A DNA stretch of 32,000 nucleotides from an uncultured Opitutales bacterium (GTDB lineage Bacteria; Verrucomicrobiota; Verrucomicrobiia; Opitutales; Intestinicryptomonadaceae). How positions within the stretch are numbered: the first letter of the stretch is position 1; every line of letters starts with the position of its first letter. The position numbers were made by a program, and so were the translations under genes. The notes beneath the pieces were generated by a model that was not told the DNA's origin, did not search any database, and was given only the letters and a program-made list of their open reading frames with translations. Where the stretch lies: contig CAKTSY010000005.1 of NCBI GenBank assembly GCA_934613415.1, positions 120,001-152,000 of the forward strand, given 5' to 3'. Of the stretch, positions 6,872-29,621 are shown piece by piece.

Positions 6872-6885
6872 AGTTTTAAGAGCAA

Positions 6886-7083: not shown

Positions 7084-7111
7084 ATATAAAAACTAAAAAA
7101 ACCGTATGCTA

Positions 7112-7477: not shown

Positions 7478-7482
7478 AATGT

Positions 7483-7848: not shown

Positions 7849-7877
7849 TTTACGAAAAATCTTTTAGCCAGCATAAT
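7849..7877 (+). promoter_or_regulatory. Candidate promoter of tmk-holB
   Basis: TTTACG-17 nt-CATAAT, with the -10 ending 8 nt before the ATG at 7886. No SD. Confidence 0.35.
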
Positions 7878-7885
7878 TTTACACA

Positions 7886-8521
7886 ATGAAAAAATCTATG
7901 TTCATTTCGTTTGAAGGCGGCGAAGGCTGCGGCAAAAGCACGCACATAAAATCGCTTTGCGAATTTTTAAAACAGCGCGGCATAGACTGCGTTGTTGTAA
8001 GGGAACCCGGCGGCAATACAATTTCGGAGAGAATTAGGAAAATCCTTTTAGACGGCAAAAAATCGGCAAATATGTGCCCTAAAACCGAACTTTTGCTTTT
8101 TGCGGCTGCCAGGGCGCAACTTGTAAACGAAGTGATAAACCCCGCATTATGCGCGGGCAAATGCGTTATTTCCGACAGGTTCTACGACTCTACAATGGCA
8201 TATCAGGGAGCTGCGCGAAAACTGGACATAAGCGAAGTAAAATATATAAACGACTTTGCAGTTTCGGGCACTATGCCCCAGCTTACGCTGTTGCTAGACA
8301 TTCCCGTACAAGAGGGGCTTAGGCGAGCCAGCATACGCGACAACGACCAAGCCGACAGAATGGGCTCGCAAAACATTTCGTTTTACAACGACGTAAGAAA
8401 CGCGTTTTTGCAGGCGGCAAAAGAAAATCCGAAACGCTTTGCCGTTATAGACGTTTCGGGCAGCAAAGAGGAAACTTTTGCAAAAATAACAAAGGCGGTA
8501 ATCGAAAAATTTGCACTATGA
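7886..8521 (+). CDS. tmk: Thymidylate kinase
   Basis: 211 aa. P-loop FISFEGGEGCGKST, the DRF/Y motif (SDRFYDST) and a lid region. Confidence 0.93.
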   Translation: MKKSMFISFEGGEGCGKSTHIKSLCEFLKQRGIDCVVVREPGGNTISERIRKILLDGKKSANMCPKTELLLFAAARAQLVNEVINPALCAGKCVISDRFYDSTMAYQGAARKLDISEVKYINDFAVSGTMPQLTLLLDIPVQEGLRRASIRDNDQADRMGSQNISFYNDVRNAFLQAAKENPKRFAVIDVSGSKEETFAKITKAVIEKFAL

Positions 8522-11043: not shown

Positions 11044-11553
11044 CTACTTTTTTTGCTCTTTTGGAAGAAATGCCATTGAAATTATAATGTACAAAAACAC
11101 GCCCACGCAAATGCCGCAATCGGCAATGTTAAAGGCGGGCCACCTGTAGTTTACATAGGGGATATAAACGTCTAAAAAATCGACAACGTGCCCGCAGGTT
11201 ATCCTGTCGAGCAGATTGCCCAAAACGCCGCCAACAAACATTCCCATACAAATGCAAACCGACTTAAATTCGAACCCAAGCTCTCTTCTAAAAAGCCAGA
11301 TTGCTACCAGCGTAAGCAAGGCTATGCTGCTTAAAAAATAGGTTCTGCCGCTAAGCATACCCCAGGCGGCTCCCGCATTTGTAACGTGTATTATCGAGAA
11401 AAACCCGTCTATAATATCTATTTTGTCGTCGGCAAACGAAACGAATTTTATCACCGCCAACTTGCTTAGCTGGTCGGCAATAAAAAGCGCAAACGCAGTC
11501 AACATAAAATAGAATATGTTTTCGCGCGCAATGGGCTGTTTTTTAGACGCCAT
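11044..11553 (-). CDS. lspA: Lipoprotein signal peptidase (signal peptidase II)
   Basis: 169 aa. Four TM helices, with motifs NAGAAWG and FNIADCGICVG. Lies downstream of ileS, as in many bacteria. Confidence 0.9.
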   Translation of the reverse strand: MASKKQPIARENIFYFMLTAFALFIADQLSKLAVIKFVSFADDKIDIIDGFFSIIHVTNAGAAWGMLSGRTYFLSSIALLTLVAIWLFRRELGFEFKSVCICMGMFVGGVLGNLLDRITCGHVVDFLDVYIPYVNYRWPAFNIADCGICVGVFLYIIISMAFLPKEQKK

Positions 11554-11557
11554 AAAT

Positions 11558-12805
11558 TTATTCGCCGTCGTCGCCGTTAGAGATGGAATCCGACGGAATT
11601 TCGCCCATCATTTCCTGACGCGCGCCAAGCTTTTGCTTGCGTATTTCGTCTTCCTTGTGGCGTTGACCCTCTATTGTGTAGCGCGTATAGGGAATCGAAA
11701 GCAGTCTGGCCTCGGGAATGGGTTTGCCCGTATATTCGCAAATGCCGTAGGTTCCGTTTTTAATGCGTTCTATTGCGGCCTCTATTTCGCCAACAATAAC
11801 CTTGTCGTTCGAAATCATCGAAAAAGCCATATCTCTTTCAAAACTTTCGGTGCCCACATCGGCCTGGTGCTGTCCGTAGGCCGACAAGTCGCCCGACTCC
11901 TCCCTAACCGACTTTTTAAGTATTTCCGAAGACCTTTCGCTTACGCCCCTCTTGTATTTTTCGAGAAGGTCTACCAAAAGGTTGTAATATTTTTTCCACT
12001 TTTGCGGAACGTCTTTTTCGGCGATAATGCCTATGCGCTGCTGACGCGGGTCGAAACCCAAAATATCGGCAATCGAAGCTACTTCGAAAGTCTGTTTGGG
12101 GGCTGCGGCCATTTTCTTTTTAATGGTGTCGGCCGAAGAATTTGCCTTGCCTTTTTTTGAATCGGCCTTGCCCGAAACCGACGAAGACGGAGCGTCTTTT
12201 TTGCCCTTGTTTTCGTTCATAAGGGCAATGATTTCGTCGTACGAGCTGTAGATAGAGGCGGCAGCTCTCACGCGCTGCTTGCCCTTTTTCTTTTTAGTAT
12301 CCCTTAAAGGAACTTTTGCCGCCAATGCGTCTTTTAAAATGGCGTCTTTGTCGATAAGGTCTAAAATATTTGTTGTTTCTGGCGCAGACTGTTTTTTTGC
12401 CTCTTTTTTTGCGTGGGCTGGCTTTGCCGTTTTTTTTGTCGCGCTAGGCTGCAATTTTGCGGGCTGCTTTGCCTTTATAGGCGCAGCCGCCTTTGCCTGA
12501 ACTTTTGCAACGGGTTTTGCCTGCTTTATTTCGGGCTTTTTGGCTGGCTTTGCCGCGGCTTTGTTTAGAGCTTGCTGTTTTACAACCGCCTTTTTTGCAA
12601 CCGCTTTTACCTGCGCTTTTACCGCAACCTTTTTGGCTGGCTGTTTTTTTGCCTCTTTTTTTGCGGGGGCTGGCTTTACCGTCTTTTTAACCGCCGACGC
12701 CTTTTTGGGGGCTTCTTTTTTAACCGATTTTAACGCTGGTTTTTTTGCCGCAACCTTTTTGGCTGCGGGCTTTGCCTTGTTTTTATTTACGGTTTTGTTT
12801 TTCAT
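11558..12805 (-). CDS. DksA/TraR-family protein with ~150 aa Lys/Ala/Pro-rich N-terminal extension, 415 aa
   Basis: The C-terminal ~110 aa match the DksA/TraR family (QADVGTESFERDMAF...IEAAIERIKNGTYGICEYTGKPIPEARLLSIPYTRYTIEGQ). The N-terminal third is AKK/PAKK-rich low complexity. Only one of the four canonical finger Cys is retained. Confidence 0.8.
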   Translation of the reverse strand: MKNKTVNKNKAKPAAKKVAAKKPALKSVKKEAPKKASAVKKTVKPAPAKKEAKKQPAKKVAVKAQVKAVAKKAVVKQQALNKAAAKPAKKPEIKQAKPVAKVQAKAAAPIKAKQPAKLQPSATKKTAKPAHAKKEAKKQSAPETTNILDLIDKDAILKDALAAKVPLRDTKKKKGKQRVRAAASIYSSYDEIIALMNENKGKKDAPSSSVSGKADSKKGKANSSADTIKKKMAAAPKQTFEVASIADILGFDPRQQRIGIIAEKDVPQKWKKYYNLLVDLLEKYKRGVSERSSEILKKSVREESGDLSAYGQHQADVGTESFERDMAFSMISNDKVIVGEIEAAIERIKNGTYGICEYTGKPIPEARLLSIPYTRYTIEGQRHKEDEIRKQKLGARQEMMGEIPSDSISNGDDGE

Positions 12806-12823
12806 TTTTAAGCAGAAAAAGTC

Positions 12824-15625
12824 CTATTTATTTTCTATTTCTTTTAAGGCTTCGGCACAACGCGGGCATACGCCGTTTTCGTCTACCGAATCTACCGTGC
12901 GCCAGCACCTAGAACACTTTACACCGTCTGCCATATGCGCCTGAACCGAAAGCGTTTCAAACTTGCCCTCTACAATGCAAACTTTCGAAACGATAAACAA
13001 TTCGGCAAGCTTATCGGCAAATTCGCGCAAAATTTTAGCGTCGGGGCTGTCGGCGTTAACCATAACGTCTACCTCGGCCTCAAGGCTTTTGCCTATAACC
13101 TTATCTTTACGCAGTTTTTCAAGCTCTTCGTTTACCTTATCTCTTATGGCAAAAATGCGCTCAAGCTTTTCGTAGTTTTCATCGTCTAGATAGTCTTTGT
13201 GTTTTTCGGGCCACTTACAAAGGTGAACCGAATTCTTTGAAAATTCGTCGCCGTTGGAAATGCAGTAGGCTTCGTCGCAAGTGAATACCAATATGGGCGA
13301 AAGTATTTTAAGGAAAGTATCCTTAATTATATACATTGCCGTTTGCGAAGACCTGCGCGACTTCGAATTTGGAGCAAAAGTATACATTCTGTCTTTTAGA
13401 ATGTCGTGGTATATTCTAGACATATGCACACCGCAAAATACGTCTACCAAGCGGTAGATGCGGTGGAATTCGTAGTTTTCGTACGCCTTTTCGCAACCGT
13501 TTACCAAAAGGGCAAGCTTGTGCAACGCCCATTTATCGATGGCGTCCATTTCGTTCCACGCAACCGCGTCTTTCGAATAGTCGAAATCGTACAAATTGCC
13601 CAACTGGTACATAATTGTGTTTCTTATGCTGCGGTATGTGTTTGCAACGTGAACCAAAATGCCGTCGGAAATCGGAATGTCGCTTTGGTAGTCTTCCGAG
13701 CTAATCCAAAGCCTTATGATGTCGGCGCCGTATTTGTTTACATAGGCATCGGCGGTAGAAGGCTTTGCGTCGCTCTTCGAAATCTTTTTGCGCTGTTCGT
13801 TTACAATAAAGCCGTGGGTTATAACCTTTTTAAAGGGCGGCAAGCCTTTTACTATTGTACCTGTCCACAACGAACTTTGGAACCAGCCTCTGTGCTGGTC
13901 GGAACCTTCCAAATATAAATCCGCAGGCCAAGCCAAGTCGGGGTTTTTGGCCAAAACCGCCAAGTGGCTGCTGCCCGAATCTATCCAAACGTCCAAAGTG
14001 TCGGTGCCCTTTTTAAGCTCGTTTTTCGGACCAAAGCTTTCGGGAACAGAAACACCTTCAAGCAACTCGGCTTCGCTTTGCTCGAACCAAATGTTTGTGC
14101 CAGCCTTTTCAACCTTGTCGGCAATGGCGCGGACAATGCCGGCGTCTATATGGGCAACGCCCTTTGCGTCGTAGAATGCGGGAATCGGAACGCCCCAGGC
14201 TCTTTGACGCGAAATGCACCAGTCGGGACGCGATTCTACAGCCCCCCTAATTCTGTTTTCGCCCCACGACGGCACCCATTGAACTTTTGAAATGTTTGCC
14301 AACGCTTTTTTGCGCATATCGTATTTGTCGAGCGAAACAAACCACTGATCCATTGCCCTGAATATAACGGGGGTTTTAGACCTCCAGCAATGGGGGTATT
14401 GGTGGGTTATCTTCTTCATTTTAAGGAGCGAACCGTTTGCCTCGATTTTTTCCAAAACCTTTATATTGGCAACGCTTTTGCCGTTTACTTCCAAAACGCT
14501 TACGCCAACTAAGTCGGCGGGAATTTGCCCGTCGTCTACATAGGCACCATCGTCGTCTAGCGGGCAATACACTTCCAAGCCGTTTGCCAAACCTGTCTGA
14601 TAGTCTTCCAAACCATGCCCGGGAGCAATGTGTACGCAGCCCGTACCGTTGTCTTCGGTAATGTAGGTTGCCGCAATTATGGGGCTTGCCCTGCCGATAA
14701 ACGGGTGCCTTGCCTTTAAGCCTGCAAGCTGCGCGCCCTTGCAAAGGGGTTTAACCGTTGCGTTTTCAAGCTCGCAATTTTTAATGAAATCTTCGGCCAA
14801 TGCCGATGAAACTACAAACTGACCCTTGTCGCATTCAACAACGCAGTAGTCGAAATCGGGGTGGACTGCCACCGCCAAGTTCGAAGGCAGTGTCCACGGG
14901 GTAGTTGTCCAAATAACTATCTTACCGTTTTTAAGCGAAAGCTTTTGTTTGGCTTCGTCGTCGAGGTTAAACGCAACCCAAATAGACGGGCTTGTGTGTT
15001 CCTGATACTCGATTTCGGCTTCCGCCAATGCGGTTTTGCAGGGAATAGACCAATATACGGGCTTTTTGCTGCGGTATACCAAACCCTCTTCGATAAACTT
15101 GGCAAAAGTCCTTAAAATTTCGGCCTCGTATTCGGGGTTTTTGGTTTTATATTCGTGCTGCCAGTCGGCCAAAACGCCCAAGCGTATAAACTGCTTGCGC
15201 TGTTTTTCGATGAAATCCGACGAAAACTTTGCGCATTCTGCCCTAAGCTGGGCTGTTGTTAAAAAGCGTTTTTCCTCTTTAAGGATTTTAGAAACCTTGT
15301 GCTCTATAGGCAAACCGTGGCAGTCCCACCCCGGAACATAGGGCACTTTGTAGCCTTTCATCGTCTTATACTTTATAACGATGTCCTTTAAAATTTTGTT
15401 GAGAGCCGTTCCTATGTGAACGTCGCCGTTGGTAAAGGGCGGGCCGTCGTGCAATACAAACTTAGGGCACCCCTCGCGCGATTTTTGAATTGTTTCGTAC
15501 AGCTTGTTGTCGGCCCAATGCTGAATGCGCACGGGCTCGCGTTTAACCAAATCGCCCCTCATCGGGAAAGCGGTTTTGGGCAAATTCAAAGTGTCTTTAT
15601 AATCTTTTCCTGCTTTTTCTGCCAT
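12824..15625 (-). CDS. ileS: Isoleucine--tRNA ligase (type 1), 933 aa
   Basis: HIGH motif ([11 protein letters not shown]), KMSKS variant (KISKS), CP1 editing domain and a C-terminal Zn finger (CSRCWR...CPRCAEAL). The track start at 15631 is a TTG, so I prefer the ATG at 15625 ([18 protein letters not shown]). Confidence 0.97.
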
Positions 15626-15797: not shown

Positions 15798-15806
15798 TTG
15801 CTACTT

Positions 15807-18008
15807 ATGAAAAAATTTATAACAATACTTGCCTTGACTTTGCTTTTTGGCACAAATTGGCTAATTGCAAGCGACTACACAAAATATGTAAATCCCTTTA
15901 TAGGCACTAGTTATAACGGCCACGTTTTCCCCGGGCCCTGTATGCCACTGGGTTTGGTGCAGCCCGGCCCCGAAACGGGCAACGGCAACTGGAAATATAC
16001 CGGCGGCTACAACCGCGACGACAACAAAATTTGGTTTTTCGGACAAACCCACATTAGCGGCACGGGCGTTGCAGATTTAGGCGATGTTGCCTTTATTCCC
16101 TTTACGGGCAGCCCATACAAAAAAGACTTTAAAAGCACTTTCAACAAAAATACCGAAATTGCAGAAATTGGCCTTTACAAAGTAGATTTAACCGACGCGA
16201 AAGCCACGGTAAAAATCAGCTGCACCGAAAGAGCAGCCATATACGAAATTACTTTCAACGACAACAACGGCGGCCTATTTTTCGACTTTCAAAGCGGATT
16301 GACAAGCGACAGATACGACTGGAAAAAGACTTACGACAACCGCGTTTTAAAGTCCGACATAAAACAACTTAGCCAGTTCGAAATTACGGGAGCGCAAACG
16401 GTAACAAGGTGGGTAAAGCGCGACGTTTTCTTCGACATTGTTTTCGACAAGCCCATTAAAGATACCATTCTTACAAAGGCGCAACTCCCCCAAAGGGGCG
16501 ACAAATTTACGCTGCTTTTCGGCTTAAAAAAAGGCGACACATTAAAGGTGAAAATCTCGCTTTCTACCGTAAGCGTTAAAAACGCGCAAATGAATATGAA
16601 AGCCGAGCTACCCCACTGGGATTTCGACAAGGTTGTAGCCCAAAATAAGCTAGCATGGAACAAGATTTTAAATAAAATTAAAGCCCAGGGCACAAAGGGC
16701 GAATTGGTAAATTTTTATACCTGTATGTACCACGCTTTTATACACCCCGCCAATATTGCCGACACCAACGGACAATATAGGGGAGCCGACAACCGTGTAA
16801 AAACATCGCCTAGCGGCAACTACTATTCGCTGTTTTCGCTGTGGGATACCTATAGGGCAGAACACCCCCTGTTTACAGTTATTGCCCCCGAATATGTAGA
16901 CGACTTTGCAAACTCTATGCTAGCCCACTACGATGCCCAAGGCTATATGCCCATTTGGACGCTTTGGGGCAAGGAAAACCATTGTATGATTGGCAACCAC
17001 TCTATTGCCGTTGTAGCCGAAGCCATCGCAAAGGGCTTTAAGGGCTTCGACTACGAAAGAGCTTTGAATGCCTTTGTAGATTCTGCCGACAAAAAATTGC
17101 CAAAGTCGAACGGCAAAGAGCTTGAAAGGCAGGGCTATTATTCGTACGACTATTTTAAAAACGAGTCGGTATCGAGAACACTTGAGGGCTGCTACGACGA
17201 CTATGCCATAGCCAAAACCGCCCAAAAACTCGGCAAAAAAAACATAGAACAGCGTTTTACAAAACGCTCGCTTTTATACAGAAACTTGTTCGATTTTAAT
17301 TTGCTTTTAATGAGGGCAAAAAACGCAAAAGGCGACTGGCGCGAGCCATTCGACCCCTTGGAACTTTCGCACGATGCCACCATGGGCGGCGACTTTACCG
17401 AGGGCAACGCCTGGCAATACACCTGGCACGTTCAGCACGACATCGACGGCCTTATAAATATGTTCGGCGGCAGCGAAAAGTTTTGCGAACGCCTAAACTA
17501 TTTCTTTAAGAATACCGACAAGCCTAAATCGCAGCGCAAGGGAACCACCCACGACGTTTCGGGTATGATTGGCCAATACGCCCACGGCAACGAACCTAGC
17601 CACCACGTTATTTATATGTTTGCGTTGGCGGGGCAAAAATGGCGCACGCAGGAGTTGGTAAGGGAAGTTTTCGACAAATTCTACCAACCTACAATAGACG
17701 GCCTTTGCGGCAACGACGACTGCGGCCAAATGAGCGCATGGGCAATATTCTCGGCAATGGGCTTTTACCCAGTAGACCCTGTTTCTACCGAATATGTTTT
17801 GGGAGCTCCCCAGCTGCCCGAAATGACTGTAAACCTTGCAAACGGCAAAACATTTAAGGTGCTAGCCCGCAACATTTCGAAGGCAAATAAATATGTAAAA
17901 TCCGTTAAGCTTAACGGCAAACCCTACACAAAAAATTGCATAAGCCATGCCGACATTGTAAATGGTGGTGTGCTTGAATTTGAAATGACAAACACCCCGC
18001 AAAAATAA
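15807..18008 (+). CDS. Glycoside hydrolase family 92 alpha-mannosidase, secreted (copy 1), 733 aa
   Basis: GH92 signature blocks YVNPFIGT..GHVFPGP, SLWDTYRAEHPL, GNHS..VVAEA..KG, EGNAWQYTWHVQHD, GNEPSHH and CGNDDCGQMSAW. Sec signal peptide. The track start at 15798 is a TTG, so I prefer the ATG at 15807 (MKKFITILALTLLFG). Confidence 0.93.
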   Translation: MKKFITILALTLLFGTNWLIASDYTKYVNPFIGTSYNGHVFPGPCMPLGLVQPGPETGNGNWKYTGGYNRDDNKIWFFGQTHISGTGVADLGDVAFIPFTGSPYKKDFKSTFNKNTEIAEIGLYKVDLTDAKATVKISCTERAAIYEITFNDNNGGLFFDFQSGLTSDRYDWKKTYDNRVLKSDIKQLSQFEITGAQTVTRWVKRDVFFDIVFDKPIKDTILTKAQLPQRGDKFTLLFGLKKGDTLKVKISLSTVSVKNAQMNMKAELPHWDFDKVVAQNKLAWNKILNKIKAQGTKGELVNFYTCMYHAFIHPANIADTNGQYRGADNRVKTSPSGNYYSLFSLWDTYRAEHPLFTVIAPEYVDDFANSMLAHYDAQGYMPIWTLWGKENHCMIGNHSIAVVAEAIAKGFKGFDYERALNAFVDSADKKLPKSNGKELERQGYYSYDYFKNESVSRTLEGCYDDYAIAKTAQKLGKKNIEQRFTKRSLLYRNLFDFNLLLMRAKNAKGDWREPFDPLELSHDATMGGDFTEGNAWQYTWHVQHDIDGLINMFGGSEKFCERLNYFFKNTDKPKSQRKGTTHDVSGMIGQYAHGNEPSHHVIYMFALAGQKWRTQELVREVFDKFYQPTIDGLCGNDDCGQMSAWAIFSAMGFYPVDPVSTEYVLGAPQLPEMTVNLANGKTFKVLARNISKANKYVKSVKLNGKPYTKNCISHADIVNGGVLEFEMTNTPQK

Positions 18009-18029
18009 TTTTTGCCAATTTACCAAACA

Positions 18030-18060
18030 AAAGGCGGCTTTAAAACAAGCCGCTTTTTTT
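18030..18060 (+). terminator. Rho-independent terminator after GH92 copy 1
   Basis: GCGGCTT-loop-AAGCCGC followed by T7. Confidence 0.7.
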
Positions 18061-18082
18061 GTAAACGTTTATGTATATTTAT

Positions 18083-18111
18083 TTGACATAACCTAGTAAA
18101 GCCAAGAGAAT
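18083..18111 (+). promoter_or_regulatory. Candidate promoter of GH92 copy 2
   Basis: TTGACA-17 nt-GAGAAT, with the -10 ending 11 nt before the ATG at 18123. No SD. Confidence 0.35.
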
Positions 18112-18122
18112 TTACAACATCT

Positions 18123-20321
18123 ATGATAAACAAACTATTTGCAACAACAGCGTTGTTTGCGGCCGCCATTTTGGAAGTAAACGCGCAAACCGACTACACA
18201 AAATATGTAAACCCCTTTGTGGGAACTGCCTATAACGGCCATGTTTTCCCCGGGCCTTGCATGCCTATGGGGTTGGTGCAGCCCAGCCCCGAAACGGGCA
18301 ACTGCTCTTGGCGTTATACGGGCGGCTATAACTACGAAGATAAAAAGATTTGGTTTTTCGGGCAAACGCATATAAGCGGCACAGGCTGCCCCGACTTTGG
18401 CGACGCCGCCTTTATACCATTTACGGGCAACCCAAATAAAACCGATTTTAAAAGCGCGTTCGACAAATCTTCGGAAACGGCAGAAATAGGTTTGTATAAA
18501 GTAAAACTAACCGACGCTAAAGCTTTGGTAAAAGTAAGCTGCACCGAAAGAACCGCCATCTACGAAATTACATTTAACGACGACAACGGCGGCTTGTATT
18601 TCGACTTTCAAAGTGGCATAGTTTCGAGGGAAAAAAATAAATTAAACCGACGCGTTTTAAAGTCCGACACAAACCAGATTAGCCAATACGAAATTACGGG
18701 CGCACAAACCGTGTCTATGTGGGTAAAGCGCGATGTCTTCTTCGACATTGTTTTCGACAAACCCATTAAAGATACCATTCTTACAAAGGCACAACTCCCA
18801 CAAAGGGGCGACAAATTCACATTGCTTTTCGGCTTAAAGAAAGGCGATACATTAAAGGTAAAAATTTCGCTTTCTACCGTAAGCGTTAAAAACGCGCAGG
18901 AAAATATGAAAGCGGAGCTTCCCCACTGGGACTTCGACAAGGTTGTAGCCCAAAATAAAGCCGCTTGGAATAAGATTTTCAACAAAATCCAGGCTCAGGG
19001 CAGCGACGACCAGCTTGCAAATTTCTACACAAGTATGTACCACGCCTTTATACACCCCAACAATATTGCCGACACCAACGGACAATATAGGGGAGCCGAC
19101 AACATTGTAAAGACCGCCCCAAGCGGCAAATACTATTCTACATTGTCTTTGTGGGACACTTACAGAGCAGAACACCCCCTGTTTACAGTTATAGCTCCCG
19201 AGCTTGTAAACGATATGGTAAACACAATGATAACCCACTACGATGCCCACGGACATATGCCCATTTGGGTTCTTTGGGGCAAGGAAAACCGCTGTATGAT
19301 AGGCAACCACTCTATTTCGGTTGTTGCCGAAGCAATGGCAAAAGGCTTTAAGGGCTTCGACTACGAAAGGGCTTTGAACGCCTGCGTAGACTCGTCCGAC
19401 AAGGCATTGAGAAAATCTAACGGCAAAGTGCTTGAGCAATATGGCTACTACCCCTTCGACTTCTACAAAAACGAATCGGTTTCGAGAACTCTTGAAGGTT
19501 GCTACGACGACTACGCAATTAGCCAAATGGCAAAGAAACTCGGCAAAAAAGACATAGAACAGCGCTTTGCAAAAAGGGCTAATTTTTACAAAAACTTGTT
19601 CGATAAATCCACCCTTTTAATGCGCGCCAAAGATAAAAAAGGCAACTGGCGCACCCCCTTCGACCCCATTGCCCTTTCGCATGATTCCACAATGGGCGGA
19701 GACTATACCGAGGGCAACGCCTGGCAATATACATGGCACGTTCAGCACGATATAGGCGGCCTTGTTTCGCTATTCCCCAACAAAGAAGTTTTCTTTGAAA
19801 GACTAGACTACCTCTTTAAAAACAAAGAAACCGCAAAAGAGCAAAAAGAGGGTTTTGTAGACGATGTTAGCGGCCTGATTGGCCAATATGCCCACGGCAA
19901 CGAGCCCAGCCACCACGTTATCTATATGTTTGCCATGATAGACAAGGCTTGGCGCACGCAGGAACTAGTAAGAGAAGTTTTCGACAAATTCTATTTAAAC
20001 AAGCCCGACGGCCTTTGCGGCAACGACGACTGCGGCCAAATGAGCGCATGGTATATATTCTCGGCAATGGGCTTTTACCCAGTAGATCCGGTTTCTGCAG
20101 AATATGTTTTAGGCGCGCCCCAACTGCCCGAAATGACCGTAAATTTGGCAAACGGCAAAACATTTAAAATTGTGGCAAAAAAGCTCTCTAAAGAAAATAA
20201 GTATGTAAAGAGCATTAAGCTTAACGGCAAGCCCTACACAAAAAAGACCATAAGCCACGCCGACATTATAAACGGCGGCACTTTGGAATTTAGAATGACA
20301 AACACCCCGCAAAACAAGTAG
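18123..20321 (+). CDS. Glycoside hydrolase family 92 alpha-mannosidase, secreted (copy 2), 732 aa
   Basis: Same GH92 signature blocks as copy 1. Signal peptide MINKLFATTALFAAAILEVNA. Confidence 0.93.
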   Translation: MINKLFATTALFAAAILEVNAQTDYTKYVNPFVGTAYNGHVFPGPCMPMGLVQPSPETGNCSWRYTGGYNYEDKKIWFFGQTHISGTGCPDFGDAAFIPFTGNPNKTDFKSAFDKSSETAEIGLYKVKLTDAKALVKVSCTERTAIYEITFNDDNGGLYFDFQSGIVSREKNKLNRRVLKSDTNQISQYEITGAQTVSMWVKRDVFFDIVFDKPIKDTILTKAQLPQRGDKFTLLFGLKKGDTLKVKISLSTVSVKNAQENMKAELPHWDFDKVVAQNKAAWNKIFNKIQAQGSDDQLANFYTSMYHAFIHPNNIADTNGQYRGADNIVKTAPSGKYYSTLSLWDTYRAEHPLFTVIAPELVNDMVNTMITHYDAHGHMPIWVLWGKENRCMIGNHSISVVAEAMAKGFKGFDYERALNACVDSSDKALRKSNGKVLEQYGYYPFDFYKNESVSRTLEGCYDDYAISQMAKKLGKKDIEQRFAKRANFYKNLFDKSTLLMRAKDKKGNWRTPFDPIALSHDSTMGGDYTEGNAWQYTWHVQHDIGGLVSLFPNKEVFFERLDYLFKNKETAKEQKEGFVDDVSGLIGQYAHGNEPSHHVIYMFAMIDKAWRTQELVREVFDKFYLNKPDGLCGNDDCGQMSAWYIFSAMGFYPVDPVSAEYVLGAPQLPEMTVNLANGKTFKIVAKKLSKENKYVKSIKLNGKPYTKKTISHADIINGGTLEFRMTNTPQNK

Positions 20322-20343
20322 TGGCCGAAGATATAAAACACAA

Positions 20344-20376
20344 AAAGGCTTTCCTTTGGGGAGGCCTTTTTTGTTT
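20344..20376 (+). terminator. Rho-independent terminator after GH92 copy 2
   Basis: AGGCTTTCC-TTTG-GGGAGGCCT hairpin (with G-U pairs) followed by TTTTTTGTTTTT. Confidence 0.6.
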
Positions 20377-20413
20377 TTGCGCGCCGCAAGAGCCTGCATT
20401 TTAGAATATGTAT

Positions 20414-20442
20414 TTGACAATACCCTGCAAGCTCCAAAGACT
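20414..20442 (+). promoter_or_regulatory. Candidate promoter of GH92 copy 3
   Basis: TTGACA-17 nt-AAGACT (weak -10), ending 12 nt before the ATG at 20455. No SD. Confidence 0.3.
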
Positions 20443-20454
20443 GTAAATCTATCT

Positions 20455-22644
20455 ATGATGAACAAATTATTTGCAATAACGGCGTTGTTTGCGGCTTTTG
20501 TATTGGGAGTAAACGCGCAAACCGACTACACAAAATATGTAAACCCATTTGTGGGCACTGCCTACAACGGCCACGTTTTCCCAGGGCCTTGTATGCCGTT
20601 CGGCATGGTGCAGCCCAGCCCCGAAACTGGCAACGGCAAATGGCGCTACACAAGCGGCTATAATAACGAAGACCAAAAAATTTGGTTTTTCGCGCAAACG
20701 CACCTTAGCGGCACGGGCTGCCCCGACCTTGGCGATGTAGCCTTTATACCATTTACGGGCAACCCAAACAAAAAAGATTTTAAAAGCTCGTTCGACAAAT
20801 CTTCGGAAACGGCAGAAATAGGGTTGTATAAAGTAAAGCTTACCGATGCTAAAGCTACCGTAAAAATAAGCTGCACCGAAAAAACCGCCATATACGAAAT
20901 TACCTTCAACGACGACAACGGCGGCTTGTACTTCGACTTTCAAAGCGGCATAGTAGGCGGCAGCATAAACAACAGAGTTTTGCAATCCGACATAAACCAG
21001 ATAAGCCAATACGAAATTACGGGCGCGCAAAAAACAAAAATGTGGGTAAAGCGCGATGTTTTCTTCGACGTAGTTTTCGACAAACCCATAAAAGACACCA
21101 TTCTTACAAAGGCAAAACTCCCCCAAAGGAGCGACAAATTCACGTTGCTTTTCGGCTTAAAGAAGGGCGAAAAGCTTATGGTGAAAGTTTCGCTTTCTAC
21201 GGTAAGTGTTAAAAACGCGCAGGAAAATATGAAGGCGGATCTCCCCCACTGGGACTTCGACAAAGTTGTCGCCCAAAACAAGGCCGCCTGGAACAAGATT
21301 CTAAACAAGGTACAAGTGCAAGGCACAGACGACCAACTCGCCAACTTCTACACATGTATGTACCACGCCTTTATACACCCAAACAATATTGCCGACACAA
21401 ACGGGCAGTATAGAGGGCCTAAAAATCAGGTTAATACTTCCGCAAACGGCAAGTACTATTCCACTTTGTCTTTGTGGGACACCTACAGAGCCGAACACCC
21501 CCTGCTTACAATAATAGCCCCCGAATATGTAAGCGACTTGGTAAATTCCATGCTAGACCACTACGACCAACAAGGCTTTATGCCAATTTGGACTCTTTGG
21601 GGACAGGAAAATTATTGTATGATTGGCAACCACTCTATTGCCGTTGTTGCCGAAGCAATGATAAAGGGCTTTAAGGGCTTCGACTACGAAAGGGCTTTGA
21701 ACGCCTGCGTAGACTCGGCAAGCAAGAAGCTAAAAAAATCCGACGGCATAGTGTTGGAGCAATACGGCTACTACCCATTCGACATCTACAAAAACGAATC
21801 TGTTTCGCGTACCCTTGAATGTTGCTACGACGACTACGCAATCAGCCAAATGGCAAAGAAACTCGGCAAAAAAGACGTAGAGCAGCGCTTTGCAAAAAGA
21901 GCCAACTTTTACAAAAATCTATTCGACAAATCCACATTATTAATGCGCGCCAAAGATAAAAAAGGCAACTGGCGCACGCCCTTCGACCCCATTGCCCTTT
22001 CGCACGCTTCCACAATGGGAGGCGACTATACCGAGGGCAACGCCTGGCAATATACATGGCACGTTCAGCACGACATCGACGGCCTTGTTTCGCTATTCCC
22101 CAACAAAGAAGTTTTCTTTAAAAAGCTAGACTATCTCTTTAAGAACAAAGAAACTGCAAAAGAGCAAAAGAAAGGCTTTGTAGACGACGTAAGCGGCTTA
22201 ATCGGCCAATATGCCCACGGCAACGAGCCCAGCCACCACGTTATCTATATGTTTGCAATGATAGACAAGGCCTGGCGCACCCAAGAACTGGTAAGGGAAG
22301 TTTTCGACAAATTCTATCTAAACAAGCCCGACGGCCTTTGCGGCAATGACGACTGCGGCCAAATGAGCGCGTGGTATATATTCTCGGCAATGGGCTTTTA
22401 CCCAGTAAACCCGGTTTCTGCAGAATATGTTTTAGGCGCACCGCAGCTGCCCGAAATGACGGTAAATTTGGCAAACGGCAAAACATTTAAAGTGGTGGCC
22501 AAAAAGCTTTCGAAAGAAAACAAGTACGTAAAAAGCGTAAAGCTTAACGGAAAGTTGTATACTAAAAAGACGATAAGCCATTCCGACATTGTTAACGGCG
22601 GCACTTTGGAATTTAGAATGACAGACACCCCGCAAAACAAGTAG
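20455..22644 (+). CDS. Glycoside hydrolase family 92 alpha-mannosidase, secreted (copy 3), 729 aa
   Basis: Same GH92 signature blocks. The start is set to the ATG at 20455 (MMNKLFAITALFAAFVLGVNA). It aligns nucleotide-for-nucleotide with the copy-2 start context (ATCTATGAT[A/G]AACAAA). The track ORF start at 20356 lies inside the copy-2 terminator. Confidence 0.93.
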   Translation: MMNKLFAITALFAAFVLGVNAQTDYTKYVNPFVGTAYNGHVFPGPCMPFGMVQPSPETGNGKWRYTSGYNNEDQKIWFFAQTHLSGTGCPDLGDVAFIPFTGNPNKKDFKSSFDKSSETAEIGLYKVKLTDAKATVKISCTEKTAIYEITFNDDNGGLYFDFQSGIVGGSINNRVLQSDINQISQYEITGAQKTKMWVKRDVFFDVVFDKPIKDTILTKAKLPQRSDKFTLLFGLKKGEKLMVKVSLSTVSVKNAQENMKADLPHWDFDKVVAQNKAAWNKILNKVQVQGTDDQLANFYTCMYHAFIHPNNIADTNGQYRGPKNQVNTSANGKYYSTLSLWDTYRAEHPLLTIIAPEYVSDLVNSMLDHYDQQGFMPIWTLWGQENYCMIGNHSIAVVAEAMIKGFKGFDYERALNACVDSASKKLKKSDGIVLEQYGYYPFDIYKNESVSRTLECCYDDYAISQMAKKLGKKDVEQRFAKRANFYKNLFDKSTLLMRAKDKKGNWRTPFDPIALSHASTMGGDYTEGNAWQYTWHVQHDIDGLVSLFPNKEVFFKKLDYLFKNKETAKEQKKGFVDDVSGLIGQYAHGNEPSHHVIYMFAMIDKAWRTQELVREVFDKFYLNKPDGLCGNDDCGQMSAWYIFSAMGFYPVNPVSAEYVLGAPQLPEMTVNLANGKTFKVVAKKLSKENKYVKSVKLNGKLYTKKTISHSDIVNGGTLEFRMTDTPQNK

Positions 22645-23430: not shown

Positions 23431-23462
23431 AAAGCCGCAATCGGGAACGATTGCGGCTTTTT
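23431..23462. terminator. Strong hairpin terminator (bidirectional) downstream of the secreted-paralog operon
   Basis: GCCGCAATCG-GGAA-CGATTGCGGC, a perfect 10-bp stem. TTTTT follows on the plus strand and TTTCTT on the minus strand. Confidence 0.7.
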
Positions 23463-23489
23463 GCATAATAAAAAACAAAAACAAAGCTC

Positions 23490-24434
23490 CTATTTTTTGG
23501 ATTTTTCTACGGTAAGAACAATATCGTTTACCGCCGAATCCCTTTCGGTTTTATACTTTTGCATTGCAACGCAAACGGTTAAATCGGCAACTTGGCACTT
23601 TTCGCCAAGTTTTAGCTTTTTGTTGTTTACCATAACGTAATCGAAAGAGCCCCTAAGCTTTGCATTTCTGCCCGAAAACAATATTAAGGGATAAACTCCC
23701 GCCTTTGCCATAGGCGTTATTCTAAGCAATATAGAGCTTCTACCCAAGTCGTTGTTAGTTCCCTTAAAAATCAACGTAGGTATATTGCCGTTTCTTTCAA
23801 CAAACTCGAAATTCGAATGCGTATATTCGGGGTTGTCTATCGTCATATTGTCGATAAGAACCACGCCGCCAAATTCAACTTTGCTTTTCCCCTCTAAAAT
23901 AATGCTTGAACCCGACGAAGCCTCTTTGTTGCCAAGCTTTGGCACATTAAAAGTAAGCATATAGTTGCCGTTAAAAGTTGCGGTAGAATCTACAAACTTA
24001 TAAGCCATTGCGCCAAAGCTTGCGGCATCGGGGCGTGCAACATTGTAGGTTTCTATGCCCGACTTCGAAACAAGCGCACTTTTCCTTAGCTCGAACATAT
24101 TTGTGCTAAACTCTCCGGGCAAGTGCGTGCACAGCTTGCCCGTCATTGCAATTTTGCGCGATTCGGCCAAAACGTGCGAATTTACGGTAATTTCCCTTAT
24201 GGCAATATCTTTGTCTATAATATTGGTAAAGTCGGCTCCGTCGCGAAAAACAACGCTGTCGCCCTTGCCGGGCTGACCTTTTAACACGCCTGTGTTGTTG
24301 TTTTCGCTATAATAGGTAAGCTCGCTCATCTTTGCAGAGCCCGCCTCTCTGTTTGGTGCCTCGCTCCAAAAAGTAAGGGCAAACATATTAGAACTTGCCG
24401 CAATAAGCGCGGCTGCAACAAAGATATTTTTCAT
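23490..24434 (-). CDS. Secreted protein of unknown function, paralog family member 3 of 3 (P1), 314 aa
   Basis: ATG preceded by GGAG. Sec signal peptide MKNIFVAAALIAASSNMFA. Collinear homology to the two upstream genes. No family recognised. Confidence 0.8.
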   Translation of the reverse strand: MKNIFVAAALIAASSNMFALTFWSEAPNREAGSAKMSELTYYSENNNTGVLKGQPGKGDSVVFRDGADFTNIIDKDIAIREITVNSHVLAESRKIAMTGKLCTHLPGEFSTNMFELRKSALVSKSGIETYNVARPDAASFGAMAYKFVDSTATFNGNYMLTFNVPKLGNKEASSGSSIILEGKSKVEFGGVVLIDNMTIDNPEYTHSNFEFVERNGNIPTLIFKGTNNDLGRSSILLRITPMAKAGVYPLILFSGRNAKLRGSFDYVMVNNKKLKLGEKCQVADLTVCVAMQKYKTERDSAVNDIVLTVEKSKK

Positions 24435-24441
24435 TTTTTAT

Positions 24442-25365
24442 CTACTCCAAGGTAAGGACTATGTCGTTGGCAATCTTGTCTCTGTCGGTGGGAGCTACGC
24501 CCCAGTCTACAGTGGCGGTTCTTTCGCCTATTTTCTTAGACTGCCCCAACTTAAGCTGCGTGCCGTTAATTTTTACCGAGGCAAACTCGCCCCTTGGTTT
24601 TACCGACTTTGTAAAGTGAATCAAAGCATATTTGCCGCTTTGGATTTTGCCCGTAACGGTAAGCTCTATTGCGCTTTTTTCCAGCGTGCCGCCGTTTTTG
24701 CCCGAAAATACCAAAACGGGAAGCTTTCCGTCTTTTTCGGCAAAAGTAAATAGCGACTGCGCCGCCGCATTCGACTGCGTTAAATCCGAAATTATGGGAA
24801 CGCCCTTAAATTCTACCTTGCTAGCCCCCGTAAGCATAAGGGCAAAGCCTGACTTGCTTTTTTTGTTGCCCAAGTTCGACAAATTAAAAGTAAGTATGCA
24901 ATTTCCGTCGAAAGTCGCGGTAGAATCTATAAACCTATATTGCGTAATGCCGAAGTTTGCAACGCCAGGGCGACCTATATTAAAGGTATCGAGCCCGCCT
25001 TTTGCGGTAAAGAGGCAGTTTTTAAGCTCCAAATACTTTATTTCGTTTTCGCTGCCTAAGTGCGTGCTAAGCGAGCCTTTTGTAAGGTTTATCTTCTTCT
25101 TTTCGGCACGAACTTGCCCGTTAATGCAAATCGAGCCGCAAACTATGTCGGAATCAAGCTCTATTACGCGCCCCCTCAAGTTTATCGAATCGCCTTTGCG
25201 GGGTTTGCCCGAAAGCTTTGCCGTGTTTTCGTTGTCGGCATACCATGCCAATTTGGAAAATTTTGCAACGCCCTTGTCGTAGTGTTCTATTTGTCCGTTA
25301 AAGACAAGTCCGAACAGGTTTGCCGCCGCGAAAACGGCCACCAATGTAAAAATGCTTTTTCTCAT
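24442..25365 (-). CDS. Secreted protein of unknown function, paralog family member 2 of 3 (P2), 307 aa
   Basis: Start set to the ATG at 25365 (MRKSIFTLVAVFAAANLFG, a signal peptide), preceded by GAGGA and lying 2 nt after the stop of the upstream gene. The track ORF extends 28 codons into the upstream gene. Confidence 0.8.
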   Translation of the reverse strand: MRKSIFTLVAVFAAANLFGLVFNGQIEHYDKGVAKFSKLAWYADNENTAKLSGKPRKGDSINLRGRVIELDSDIVCGSICINGQVRAEKKKINLTKGSLSTHLGSENEIKYLELKNCLFTAKGGLDTFNIGRPGVANFGITQYRFIDSTATFDGNCILTFNLSNLGNKKSKSGFALMLTGASKVEFKGVPIISDLTQSNAAAQSLFTFAEKDGKLPVLVFSGKNGGTLEKSAIELTVTGKIQSGKYALIHFTKSVKPRGEFASVKINGTQLKLGQSKKIGERTATVDWGVAPTDRDKIANDIVLTLE

Positions 25366-25367
25366 AT

Positions 25368-26342
25368 TTATTTTTCCTCTGGTTGCGATACTTGCAAAAT
25401 AAGGTCGTTTGCTGTGCGCTTGTCTTTGCCGTTTGCAGCCGCGCCCCACATAAGTTTAACTTCCTTGCCGTATAGCTTTACGGCATCGCCGCCTATGGTA
25501 ATTTTTTTGTTGTTAATTGTAACTTTGTCGAACTTGCCCTTGGGCTTCGACGAATTTTCCATAACCAACAAGGGATAAAGCCCAGGCTTTGTTTTGCTGT
25601 TTATCCTAACCTTAATTCTGGGGTTTTGGAAATCCACCTTATTGTTGTAAACAAACATGCTGGGCAAAAAGCCGCCTTTGTCTTTAAACGAAAGCAGGCA
25701 CTCGAACCTTTCGGGGTTTGTGGTAAACATCGAGTCTAATATAAGCGCGCCCTTAAGGTTTATTACGCCCTTGCCTTCAAGGATAAAGCCCAAGCCGCTG
25801 GCTTCGTCAAGCTCTTTGGGTTCGCCCATGGCTTCAACCAAAAAGCTCATTGTATTTAAAATATTTATTGTGCCGTTGCTGACTTCTAAAGTTACCTTGC
25901 CGTAGTTGCAGTCGCGCATAATGCCGCCGCGAACCTGCCCTTTAAACACCTTAACGTTGGCAACGCCGTTCTTTTTTGCCGAAAGCGCGGTTGTTGTTCC
26001 GCTAGAATATGTGGCAAAACTGTTTACAACAACAACGTCCAGCTTTTTGCCGTCTACTTCAAACAAATTGCCGCCTTCAAGCTCCAGCGTTTTTAGCTGC
26101 AGGTCTTTGTCGAGGGTAATAATGTCGCCGCCGCGTATAAACGCCATATCGTTTTTACCGGGAACGCCCTTTGCGGGCAATGCCTGCTGCAGGTAGCTGT
26201 TATACCATTTTACTTCGCTAAATTTTACATCGTGCGCGCCTTCCGTATTTTCCGACATATTTTTAAAAGCGTAATAGTCGTAGGCAAATGCGCTTGCCGA
26301 AAGCAGCAGGGGAATAAAAGAAAGTGCAATAATTTTTTTCAT
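25368..26342 (-). CDS. Secreted protein of unknown function, paralog family member 1 of 3 (P3), 324 aa
   Basis: Start set to the ATG at 26342 (MKKIIALSFIPLLLSASAFA, a signal peptide), which sits directly downstream of a good promoter. Homologous to P1/P2, especially in the N-terminal and C-terminal motifs. Confidence 0.8.
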   Translation of the reverse strand: MKKIIALSFIPLLLSASAFAYDYYAFKNMSENTEGAHDVKFSEVKWYNSYLQQALPAKGVPGKNDMAFIRGGDIITLDKDLQLKTLELEGGNLFEVDGKKLDVVVVNSFATYSSGTTTALSAKKNGVANVKVFKGQVRGGIMRDCNYGKVTLEVSNGTINILNTMSFLVEAMGEPKELDEASGLGFILEGKGVINLKGALILDSMFTTNPERFECLLSFKDKGGFLPSMFVYNNKVDFQNPRIKVRINSKTKPGLYPLLVMENSSKPKGKFDKVTINNKKITIGGDAVKLYGKEVKLMWGAAANGKDKRTANDLILQVSQPEEK

Positions 26343-26352
26343 AATAAACCGA

Positions 26353-26380
26353 AGTATAGTCGCAAAAATTTTCGTTTCAA
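26353..26380 (-). promoter_or_regulatory. Candidate sigma70-like promoter of the secreted-paralog operon
   Basis: Minus strand reads TTGAAA-16 nt-TATACT, with the -10 ending 10 nt before the ATG at 26342. No SD. Confidence 0.45.
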
Positions 26381-26460
26381 CAAAAAATCTATACATTTAC
26401 AAAAAAATCAAAAAACGCCAAAAACGCGCAGTTTGACAAAAAGCTTTGTTAAGCCCGTTT

Positions 26461-27944: not shown

Positions 27945-28883
27945 ATGAAATTCGGCAAAAAAAAACCTCTTGTAATAGACGAGCCGAAAAAGAAAACACT
28001 GTATACGCTAAAGCTTTTGCCCGAACAGGCAAAGGCTTTAAACGCGTGGCTTAGCGCGCATCTTTGGGCGCCCTACAATGTAGACTATGCCGATTTTGCG
28101 TTTAAATCGCGCGATTGCAACGTTGTGTTCTACACATCGGGCAAGCTTGTTGTTCAGGGCAAGGGCACCGAAGACTTTGTGCGCTTTGTGCTTGAAGGCG
28201 AAATAACAAAAGAGGCAAAGTTCGGCTACGAAGAGGTTTTAAACCCCGAATGGTTTACCGAGCACGCTGGTGTAGACGAATCGGGCAAGGGCGACCTTTT
28301 CGGCCCGCTGGTTTCCGCCTGCGTTATTGCCGACAAAGCCGCCGTAAAAAAATGGGTAGACGACGGCCTTAAAGAATCCAAAAAAGTTACCAGCGACAAA
28401 GCCGTTATGGCTATGGCAAAAAAAATTAAGGCCACAAAGAACGTTGTTATTAAGGTTACCTATGCGAATATGGAAAAATACAACGCCCTTTACGAAAAGT
28501 TCGGCAACCTAAACAAAATGCTGGCGTGGATGCACGCAAAGTCGGTAGACAATGCCCTTGCCGAAAAGCATGTACCATGGGGTATGCTAGACCAATTCAC
28601 AAAACAGCCCCTTGTGCAACGCCAGCTGCAGACAAAAGATTTTACCTTAAAAATGCAGACCAAGGCCGAAAGCGACCCTGTTGTAGCCGCCGCTTCAATA
28701 ATTGCAAGGGCAACCTATATCTACGTTATGCAAAAGCTTTCGCAAGAAGCCGGCATTGAATTGTCGAAGGGAGTTTCGGCAAACGTAAAAGAGCAATGCA
28801 AAGCCCTTGTCGAAAAATTCGGCGCGCAAAACCTACCCAAATTTGCAAAAATGCACTTTAAAACCGTAAAGGAGCTTGTTTAA
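27945..28883 (+). CDS. rnhC: Ribonuclease HIII
   Basis: 312 aa. N-terminal ~85 aa RNase HIII-specific domain (VVFYTSGKLVVQGKG) followed by an RNase HII-fold core with GVDESGKGDLFGPLV. GAGGA SD. Starts 1 nt after the esterase stop. Confidence 0.9.
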   Translation: MKFGKKKPLVIDEPKKKTLYTLKLLPEQAKALNAWLSAHLWAPYNVDYADFAFKSRDCNVVFYTSGKLVVQGKGTEDFVRFVLEGEITKEAKFGYEEVLNPEWFTEHAGVDESGKGDLFGPLVSACVIADKAAVKKWVDDGLKESKKVTSDKAVMAMAKKIKATKNVVIKVTYANMEKYNALYEKFGNLNKMLAWMHAKSVDNALAEKHVPWGMLDQFTKQPLVQRQLQTKDFTLKMQTKAESDPVVAAASIIARATYIYVMQKLSQEAGIELSKGVSANVKEQCKALVEKFGAQNLPKFAKMHFKTVKELV

Positions 28884-28886
28884 AAA

Positions 28887-29621
28887 ATGAATCCTTTGGC
28901 GGAATTCGACACCCAGCAGCTTAGAACGCGCCCCTATATTACGGGCGTAGACGAAGCCGGGCGCGGCGCGCTTGCAGGCCCCGTTTCGGCAGCCGCCTTT
29001 GTCGCAAAAGCCGATTTTTATTCGCAAAACAACGAATTATTCGACTCTATAAACGATTCAAAAAAACTTAGCCCCGAAAAGCGTCTTGAAATTTTTAAAT
29101 ATCTTGGAGAATTAAAAGAGCAAAAAGTTGTAGATTTCGAATGCGCGTTTTCGTCGGTAGAGGAAATAGAGCAGTTCAACATTTTAAAGGCAACCGCAAT
29201 GGCAATGGAAAAGGCGTTAAGGGCACTAAACGAACGCCTTAACCTAAACTACAAAAGAAACGCCCCCGCCCTTACGCTTTTCGGCGAAAGCGCGGTAGAC
29301 ACAGCCCAGTCGGAAATCTTTATAGACGGCAAGCCCATAAAAAACTTCGAATTTAAACACCGCGCCATAGTTAAGGGCGACGCCACTTGCATGGCAATTG
29401 CCGCGGCCTCTATTGTAGCAAAAGTTAGCCGCGACTTGTTTATGGACGAAATGGGCAAAAAGTATAAGCACTACGGCTTTGAACAGCACAAAGGCTACGG
29501 CACCGAACTTCATTGCGAAAGAATTAAAGAGCTTGGAAGATGCCCCATTCACAGGCTTACCTTTGTTAAAACAATGCTTTCCCACGACAAAAAAGAAGAC
29601 CCCCAAGGCGAGCTTTTTTAA
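28887..29621 (+). CDS. rnhB: Ribonuclease HII
   Basis: 244 aa. GVDEAGRGALAGPV, DSKKLS, ASIVAKVSRD and HRLTF motifs. AAGGAG SD. Confidence 0.93.
   Translation: MNPLAEFDTQQLRTRPYITGVDEAGRGALAGPVSAAAFVAKADFYSQNNELFDSINDSKKLSPEKRLEIFKYLGELKEQKVVDFECAFSSVEEIEQFNILKATAMAMEKALRALNERLNLNYKRNAPALTLFGESAVDTAQSEIFIDGKPIKNFEFKHRAIVKGDATCMAIAAASIVAKVSRDLFMDEMGKKYKHYGFEQHKGYGTELHCERIKELGRCPIHRLTFVKTMLSHDKKEDPQGELF

Follow-up and report, generated by a model that had tools for sequence, protein, structure and literature searches.

The stretch analysed here (the window: 32,000 nucleotides of contig CAKTSY010000005.1, from an uncultured Opitutales bacterium) carries on its minus strand three consecutive genes, labelled A, B and C in the order of transcription. 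As judged from their sequences, the three products are clearly true paralogs, and they belong to a previously undescribed sequence family with an ordinary fold, whose members appear to be exported. The genes, with the elements identified within and around them, are listed below; all are on the minus strand.

25368..26342 (-): gene A, 324 aa, 'A-type' paralog, heads the array
24442..25365 (-): gene B, 307 aa, 'B/C-type' paralog, protein used for the structure model
23490..24434 (-): gene C, 314 aa, 'B/C-type' paralog
26283..26342 (-): predicted signal peptide of A, residues 1-20, MKKIIALSFIPLLLSASAFA then cleavage before YDYY
25309..25365 (-): predicted signal peptide of B, residues 1-19
24378..24434 (-): predicted signal peptide of C, residues 1-19
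26343..26409 (-): conserved upstream region, 67 nt, a promoter-like site preceded by A/T tracts
23431..23460 (-): terminator-like hairpin after gene C, perfect 13-bp stem, 4-nt loop

Gene boundaries, paralogy and flanking signals

The corresponding raw open reading frames (ORFs) of the minus strand are 25368..26396, 24442..25449 and 23490..24434. For A and B, starts were chosen from the family alignment, at 26342 (MKKIIALSF) and 25365 (MRKSIF) respectively, because relatives all begin at these positions with M-K-K followed by a hydrophobic core; the longer version of A would overlap the promoter-like site, and that of B the upstream gene. The description given by the first-pass annotation, made from the letters of the window alone, of three homologous secreted genes of 324, 307 and 314 aa is confirmed in both lengths and paralogy. 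B and C are 42% identical over 313 aa (E 4e-77), while A is more distant from both (25% identity to B, E 6e-16; 26% to C, E 4e-20).

The N-terminal motif W/Y ... G.P.K.D ... R and the C-terminal block G.Y.L ... G.F..V.(I/V)N ... G ... ND(I/L)(V/I)L, already noticed at first annotation, are found in all three proteins and hold the most conserved positions across the 54 family members described below. A central block, Y[KR]F[VI]DSTATF[ND]GN...SKVEF.G, is strong in B and C and degenerate in A; its earlier assignment to the first two proteins, with degeneration in the third, holds only if the genes are numbered by coordinate, and fails in transcription order.

The genes are tightly packed. At the A-B junction (TAA-AT-ATG) the gap is 2 nt, with GAGGA ahead, and at the B-C junction (TAG-ATAAAAA-ATG) it is 7 nt and overlapped by GGAG, in agreement with the first description of both. 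Upstream of A, TTGAAA-16-TATACT lies at 26380..26353, its -10-like box ending 10 nt short of the ATG. It is the best of the 3 promoter-like sites in the region, with 10/12 consensus matches; shuffles of the region contain 5.4 such sites on average, so the match by itself proves nothing. The whole of 26343..26409 is nearly invariant in four other assemblies (L001-L004), though synonymous divergence of the genes reaches 0.33-0.52, and this contrast argues for a functional promoter or operator. The promoter proposed at first annotation is thus borne out as to the site and its conservation among strains, not as to the strength of the match, and the region probably does act as a promoter. No Shine-Dalgarno sequence precedes the ATG of gene A; with the -10 box so close to it, the mRNA of gene A may be nearly leaderless. 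Phase variation was considered and rejected, the homopolymer T tracts upstream of A being of equal length in all five assemblies.

The hairpin after gene C has a predicted free energy of -23.8 kcal/mol (z = -7.66). Its stem is composed of a 10-bp G+C-rich core, which is all that had first been described, extended by three A:U pairs to 13 perfect pairs. The T tail is weak (CTTGTTG), which explains why the hairpin was not listed by the terminator scan. In L001 and L003 the stem is maintained via a paired G:C to A:U change (agccgc..gcggct to aaccgc..gcggtt), and in L004 it is largely retained. A single transcription unit is a plausible and the simplest reading of the close spacing, the near-invariance of the upstream region among strains and the compensatory changes in the hairpin.

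Family extent, export signals and predicted fold

An exhaustive profile search of 1.84 billion cluster representatives returned 53 hits, 47 of them at E<=1e-10, for about 50 clusters. Almost all matches are 300-320 aa long and aligned end to end, and members range between 286 and 351 aa; at HMMER sensitivity the family is, by sequence, small, uniform in length and isolated from all else. The exhaustive search was needed to reveal it: a word-indexed homolog search found near-identical proteins only, and a single-protein scan of the genome collection gave matches in the same species only. The two longest and weakest hits, P0052 and P0053, were rejected as spurious, being FG-GAP-like and GW-repeat proteins; likewise, an unknown protein of 309 aa in L008 was discarded as not belonging to the family, as were the partial proteins of 322-325 aa with which L007 and L011-13 begin (L numbers denote the loci compared).

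No model in Pfam, NCBIfam or PHROGs matched A, B or C, and the 45 aligned family members gave noise only against Pfam, plus a sub-threshold match to G8. A search of PDB sequences with the family profile returned nothing significant, the sole hint being an endopolygalacturonase (E 0.33), and nothing on the family was found in a literature search; source annotations of its members read 'hypothetical protein'. The initial failure to recognise a family thus stands after profile searches, none of which gave a confident match to a characterised one. Every named cluster member is an 'Opitutales bacterium' or 'Verrucomicrobia bacterium CAG:312' and, as far as these names show, the family appears to be restricted to gut Opitutales.

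The genes are real and constrained, as indicated by frames that are intact in L001-L004 and by ratios of nonsynonymous to synonymous divergence (dN/dS) of 0.04-0.09 against a 94%-identical ortholog set (0.043 for A, 0.087 for B and 0.078 for C versus L004). Relatives therefore do hold intact homologs, a point on which the first-pass annotation had made its reading depend. Because of the same ratios, diversifying selection or antigenic variation was rejected at the within-species level.

Leaders in the 54 members measure 18-25 aa; they open with K/R, continue in a hydrophobic core and, in 47 cases, have Ala at -1. The mature end has the form h-x-[FY]. These features support the Sec type-I signal proposed earlier. 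The leaders of A, B and C contain no Cys, hence no lipobox; a chance lipobox-like string occurs in 2 of the 54 members, inside the hydrophobic core and upstream of the conserved A-x-A site. Nor is any other of the anchors looked for visible, as had been stated at first: A, B and C have no beta-barrel or PEP-CTERM match in Pfam or NCBIfam, the PF03797 translocator is absent, and the model of B shows no barrel. Neighbouring proteins in L011-13 do match the PEP-CTERM models, and serve as a positive control. Members end 0-8 residues past the last strand, the chain of B at residue 307. Lacking lipobox, barrel and PEP-CTERM, the product would be soluble in the periplasm or outside the cell.

The structure of protein B was predicted by AlphaFold2 (model m8fa0af1b83ac) on a 45-sequence alignment. 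The model is all-beta, with a predicted local distance difference test score (pLDDT) of 93.4 and a predicted template modelling score (pTM) of 0.91; a model built from only 3 sequences was poor (pLDDT 48.7). Strand triplets start at residues 91, 118, 149 and 183, with a period of 27-34 residues, which is typical of the three-stranded rungs of a right-handed parallel beta-helix, and from about residue 231 seven further strands end the chain. When the model was compared by Foldseek with PDB and BFVD nothing significant was obtained (best E 0.018), so no significant solved relative emerged. The weak top matches are uniformly right-handed beta-helices, led by pertactin, Hap, IcsA, Hbp, SepA and EspP (for IcsA, TM 0.40 and probability 0.89), with pectate lyases, K1 capsule lyase, exopolygalacturonase, PL6 alginate lyase and tailspikes lower down. 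Strand periodicity and weak fold matches together point to a right-handed beta-helix topology for the modelled protein; the first-pass annotation had left a choice between beta-helix and beta-sandwich, and its expectation of a beta-rich fold is upheld. What is said here of family and fold is held with high confidence, and what is said of function with much less.

Conservation was examined in the 54 members. The residues that reach >=60% conservation are turn residues (Gly, Pro, Asp/Asn, Ser/Thr) and hydrophobic ones of the strands. The conserved sites include S37, W41 (91%), P55 (98%), D59 (98%) and D71 in the N-terminal cap, an 'E-K-D-G-x-x-P' turn, and G244 (100%), Y246 (93%), N267 (96%) and N300-D301 in the C-terminal region; G173, G180, D193, G213, P216 and K242 also belong to the conserved set. 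No cluster of conserved Lys, Arg, His or Glu was seen in the family profile, and the pattern looks like that of a scaffold with free surfaces, not of an active site.

These data bear on one alternative in particular, by which the proteins would form a new family of beta-helix carbohydrate-active enzymes (polysaccharide lyases or glycosidases), perhaps secreted by a type II system, the array supplying isoenzymes for host or dietary glycans. The lyases and the exopolygalacturonase among the Foldseek matches, together with the tailspikes and the endopolygalacturonase hint, fit this idea, as do the nearly invariant D59, D71 and D193 and a position 147 where only D or N occurs. Near the array are three GH92 genes and one for a BD-FAE esterase, a sulfatase gene directly follows the pair of family genes in L010 and a rhamnosidase gene lies near the L011 copy; tandem pel paralogs are generally known as type II substrates. 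The 45 aligned members, however, match none of the Pfam beta-helix enzyme models. The conserved Asp residues lie in the N-terminal cap and in turns, with no conserved Lys, Arg, His or Glu that could serve as catalytic base or acid, and paralog A, having N at position 147, lacks D147. With only 4-5 rungs, the predicted helix falls short of those in known lyases and GH28 enzymes, and most loci have no carbohydrate-active neighbour. An enzymatic function of this kind is considered unlikely.

Chromosomal setting and copy number of the arrays

The genes of the window are, in order, those for enolase, an aminotransferase, thymidylate kinase, histidinol dehydrogenase, LspA, IleRS, three tandem GH92 proteins and L31, then the triplet, beyond which lie a DjlA-like J-domain protein, the BD-FAE esterase, RNase HIII and HII, DHODH and EF-P. 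The same order is found in L001-L004, and in L005, a different species, a family array occupies the same esterase-to-L31 site. The array segment is ordinary chromosome among housekeeping genes, in which copy number is what varies; the description of the segment as accessory-looking, given before these comparisons, is not supported by its neighbours or by synteny. Orthologs of gene C that are 99% and 94% identical occur in two Opitutales metagenome-assembled genomes, JAXFOH010000098.1 (L003) and CAKUIA010000006.1, one of which comes from Hadza gut samples. An origin from a mobile element or phage was rejected: the window holds no tRNA or Rfam element, and when 50,697 phage and 72,556 plasmid records were searched by tblastn no match was found.

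Other features of the window were recorded. The GH92 (alpha-mannosidase family) genes, at 15798..22644 (+), are three tandem paralogs with ORF lengths of 736, 732 and 762 aa, and make up a second array of tandem paralogs, directly upstream of L31 and the triplet. Two ribonuclease genes adjoin at 27945..29621 (+): the first is RNase HIII-like (312 aa, with DUF3378 and RNase_HII domains), and the second, directly behind it, encodes RNase HII (244 aa). The product of 7112..7477 (-), a Lys/Ala repeat protein of 121 aa, matches Pfam HC2 with 68.2 bits (cutoff 40); HC2 is a histone H1-like nucleoprotein known from Chlamydia, and the product may be a nucleoid protein of the Planctomycetes-Verrucomicrobia-Chlamydiae (PVC) type in an Opitutales genome. 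A protein of 415 aa, encoded at 11558..12805 (-), matches Pfam only in a C4 zinc finger of the DksA/TraR type near its C terminus (residues 351-385), and greatly exceeds canonical DksA in length.

Family genes occur in 1 to 8 copies per locus. Outside the window and L001-L004, which keep the triplet, the following arrangements were found:

L005 (ENA ERZ27245261 k141_1313254), 1417..8948: eight tandem paralogs of 308-321 aa, some adjacent genes overlapping by 4 nt
L008: three tandem copies
L010: two copies, then a sulfatase gene directly downstream
L009: a single copy
L015-17: a single copy between rhaA and hisS
L007 and L011-14 (CAG-312-like): a single copy directly after the ATP synthase operon

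In the loci examined no neighbour is shared between sites and there is no conserved partner gene, nor any linked usher, chaperone, secretion pore or sortase-like gene. The tandem triplet, whose conservation in relatives had been left as a question, is thus kept within the nearest assemblies, with no constant co-occurring gene and a different number of copies elsewhere.

Gene A finds its best matches in the first two genes of the L005 array (181 and 155 bits, versus 63 and 75 bits with B and C). By bit scores and in a neighbour-joining tree, A groups with these two genes, and B and C with the other six, so that the split between A and B/C predates the two species; A-type genes come first in both arrays. 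The triplet of L008 groups with the CAG-312 singleton and not with that of the window, which indicates that it expanded independently. Between the window and L003, A has a synonymous divergence (dS) of 0.11, B one of 0.24 and C, with 3 nt differences, one of 0, a mosaic that suggests recent recombination between strains inside the array.

The old split, and the constant position of the A-type gene at the head of the array, would be expected if the proteins together built up a single structure outside the cytoplasm (a fibre, a sheath or a surface layer, heteromeric in composition), with the A-type as tip, base or nucleator and the B/C-type as bulk, by analogy with the major and minor subunits of pilus or curli operons. 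Tight packing of the operon suggests stoichiometric co-expression, the strain-conserved A/T-rich upstream region could be a strong promoter, and beta-solenoids can stack end to end, as is well established. Hetero-assembly is not required, however, in the many lineages that have a single copy, and the arrays in L008 and L010 have independent origins in other clades. Caps such as the conserved one at the N terminus and the C-terminal beta region would be of the kind that blocks stacking, and the missing usher, chaperone, secretion pore or sortase-like genes also weigh on this side. Such an assembly is regarded as quite improbable, more so than an enzyme.

Singletons at fixed core-genome sites raise a different explanation, in which the proteins would not be secreted but would do housekeeping work for the Opitutales envelope from within the periplasm, for instance as scaffolds or chaperones of surface proteins of the outer-membrane or PEP-CTERM kind, the arrays being neutral duplications. 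The identical sequence P0112, seen on 210 contigs and indexed in 364 blocks of the assembly collection, always follows the ATP synthase operon. Values of dN/dS below 0.1, and the lack of an anchor or of any known secretion signal beyond Sec, are in line with this explanation, as is the position of the L011-13 gene beside PEP-CTERM proteins with a similar N-terminal motif. The latter neighbours are found in one clade only, though, and paralogs that have diverged to 25-42% identity and are yet under purifying selection suggest sub-functionalised rather than neutral copies. Housekeeping factors of this kind are on the whole unlikely, if somewhat less so than enzymes.

Proposed role and comparison with known systems

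In the reading that we favour, the family is lineage-restricted and consists of short, capped beta-helix proteins that are exported and lack an anchor, probably non-catalytic binders, multiplied by tandem duplication; the chances of this reading as a whole are put at about even. A, B and C would form one small operon in the chromosome of a gut Opitutales, probably co-transcribed, each product passing through Sec and losing its leader to signal peptidase I. Once mature, at about 290 aa, the protein would fold as a short right-handed parallel beta-helix, with an N-terminal cap (W...G-P-G-x-x-D-x-V-x-R...D-x-D), 4-5 three-stranded rungs and a C-terminal beta-rich region of about 80 aa (G-x-Y-x-L ... 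N-G ... N-D-L-V-L-E-V) ending the chain. It would remain soluble in the periplasm, or reach the outside of the cell if taken by the type II secretion system encoded in these genomes: the L001 array has a secretin gene some 6.7 kb away, and L009 contains a T2SS-M gene. Turn and cap residues are conserved while the rest diverges freely, which makes a non-catalytic binding or adhesin-like scaffold the most likely role, with a surface specificity that would differ between paralogs. Tandem duplication would then have produced repertoires of 1 to 8 copies across lineages. The more specific notion of glycan binding, offered at first annotation as pure speculation, is still speculative.

Several observations weigh against this reading. 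Strong purifying selection and singletons at fixed core-genome sites, as in the CAG-312-like species, fit a conserved housekeeping or envelope role equally well; D59, D71 and D193 might conceivably make up a metal site or an active site; and the nearby carbohydrate-active genes (GH92 x3 and BD-FAE esterase, sulfatase in L010) are of the sort often found next to beta-helix enzymes. A bolder variant would see in the family a class of stand-alone, translocator-less 'mini-passenger' beta-helices of gut Verrucomicrobia, either enzymes or binders acting on host mucus or dietary glycans via type II secretion, or A and B/C products co-assembling into an unseen extracellular structure; it is given little probability, comparable to that of the enzyme family.

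CAG-312-type Opitutales are uncultured and common in the gut communities of humans and animals, and to our knowledge their cell-surface and secreted proteins are almost unstudied. Since the family is apparently widespread, conserved and exported, it would be reasonable to give it a domain-of-unknown-function entry and to include it in screens for structure or glycan binding. As things stand it is a further hypothetical family, restricted in taxonomic range and familiar in fold, which indicates no unusual mechanism and bears on no long-standing question.

Among known systems, bacterial lipoproteins and type V (FimA/Mfa) pilins differ from A, B and C in having a lipobox Cys at the cleavage site. 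Phage tailspikes and tail fibres gave no PHROGs match and nothing significant in BFVD. The G8 domain (PF10162), with which beta-helix regions begin at their N-terminal side in PKHD1, CEMIP, TMEM2 and some bacterial proteins, is the only Pfam model touched by more than one member, namely 3 of 45, with a best E of 1.1e-3, below the gathering threshold; the other 42, and A, B and C, have no match to it.

Surface proteins of the same order with a PEP-CTERM signal offer a closer comparison. In L011-13 the family gene is convergent with PEP-CTERM proteins of 476-507 aa (TIGR02595, 18-20 bits, cutoff 16). Genes for such proteins, with no other Pfam domain, lie on the minus strand at 11708..13231 in L011, 11532..12602 in L012, and 11532..12962 and 13221..14729 in L013; L012 differs from the other two in the N-terminal half of its PEP-CTERM copy, which marks a variable surface-protein locus. 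The protein of L013:13221-14729 (502 aa) and its 154 relatives were used as the comparison family. Like the family described here, these proteins have a signal peptide followed by the opening motif W...W..G.PG..D.V.I, which hhalign aligned to that of the family with E 1.4e-4 with, and 6e-4 without, the signal peptide (probability 28-52%, 28% without it). The family profile hidden Markov model also weakly touches the PEP-CTERM neighbours (E 0.003-0.009 among 77 proteins). Endings are alike by eye (G.TYDLIS ... N.L.V.F versus G.Y.LI.F ... NDLVLEV, hhalign E 0.013-0.14), and neither the C-terminal parts nor the whole mature proteins gave a significant alignment with the PEP-CTERM family (probability 3-7%); moreover, the proteins described here stop where the sorting signal (TIGR02595, PF07589) would begin. 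The likeness seems to be one of a shared beta-helix opening motif, and homology is not established.

A resemblance at both ends to large surface proteins of PVC bacteria had been suggested at first annotation, with reference to autotransporter-associated repeats; it survives for the opening motif and by eye for the closing one, and fails for the repeats. The PATR repeat (PF12951, TIGR02601) has no match at E<=1 in A, B and C in Pfam or NCBIfam, and none in the 45 members. Compared with the large multi-repeat PATR proteins, which have a C-terminal anchor, the family is short (286-351 aa) and anchorless.

The Dickeya pel clusters, pelADE and pelBC, are tandem pectate-lyase paralogs secreted by the Out type II system. 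Unlike them, the family has no PL1/PL3 sequence or profile match, and no conserved catalytic or Ca-binding constellation was seen in its profile; more generally, no beta-helix lyase or glycosidase model (PL1/PL3/PL6/PL9, GH28, GH49; Pectate_lyase, Beta_helix, Glyco_hydro_28) matched any of the 45 members. What the two have in common is the arrangement, that is tandem, Sec-dependent and anchorless paralogs of about 300-390 aa, with a beta-helix fold that in the present case is predicted.

The top Foldseek matches of the B model in PDB are passengers of classical (type Va) autotransporters: pertactin (1DAB), Hap (3SYJ), IcsA (5KE1) and Hbp (1WXR). These matches are weak (E 0.018-0.5, TM 0.13-0.40, identity 9-15%); in the case of IcsA, residues 419-758 align with the model over 277 columns, at TM 0.40. 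The family differs from type Va autotransporters in being 3-4 times shorter, and in lacking a barrel translocator, a PATR repeat and any match to the autochaperone or Pertactin models. Like their passengers, its members would be right-handed beta-helices exported via Sec, with an N-terminal cap and a distinct C-terminal capping region.

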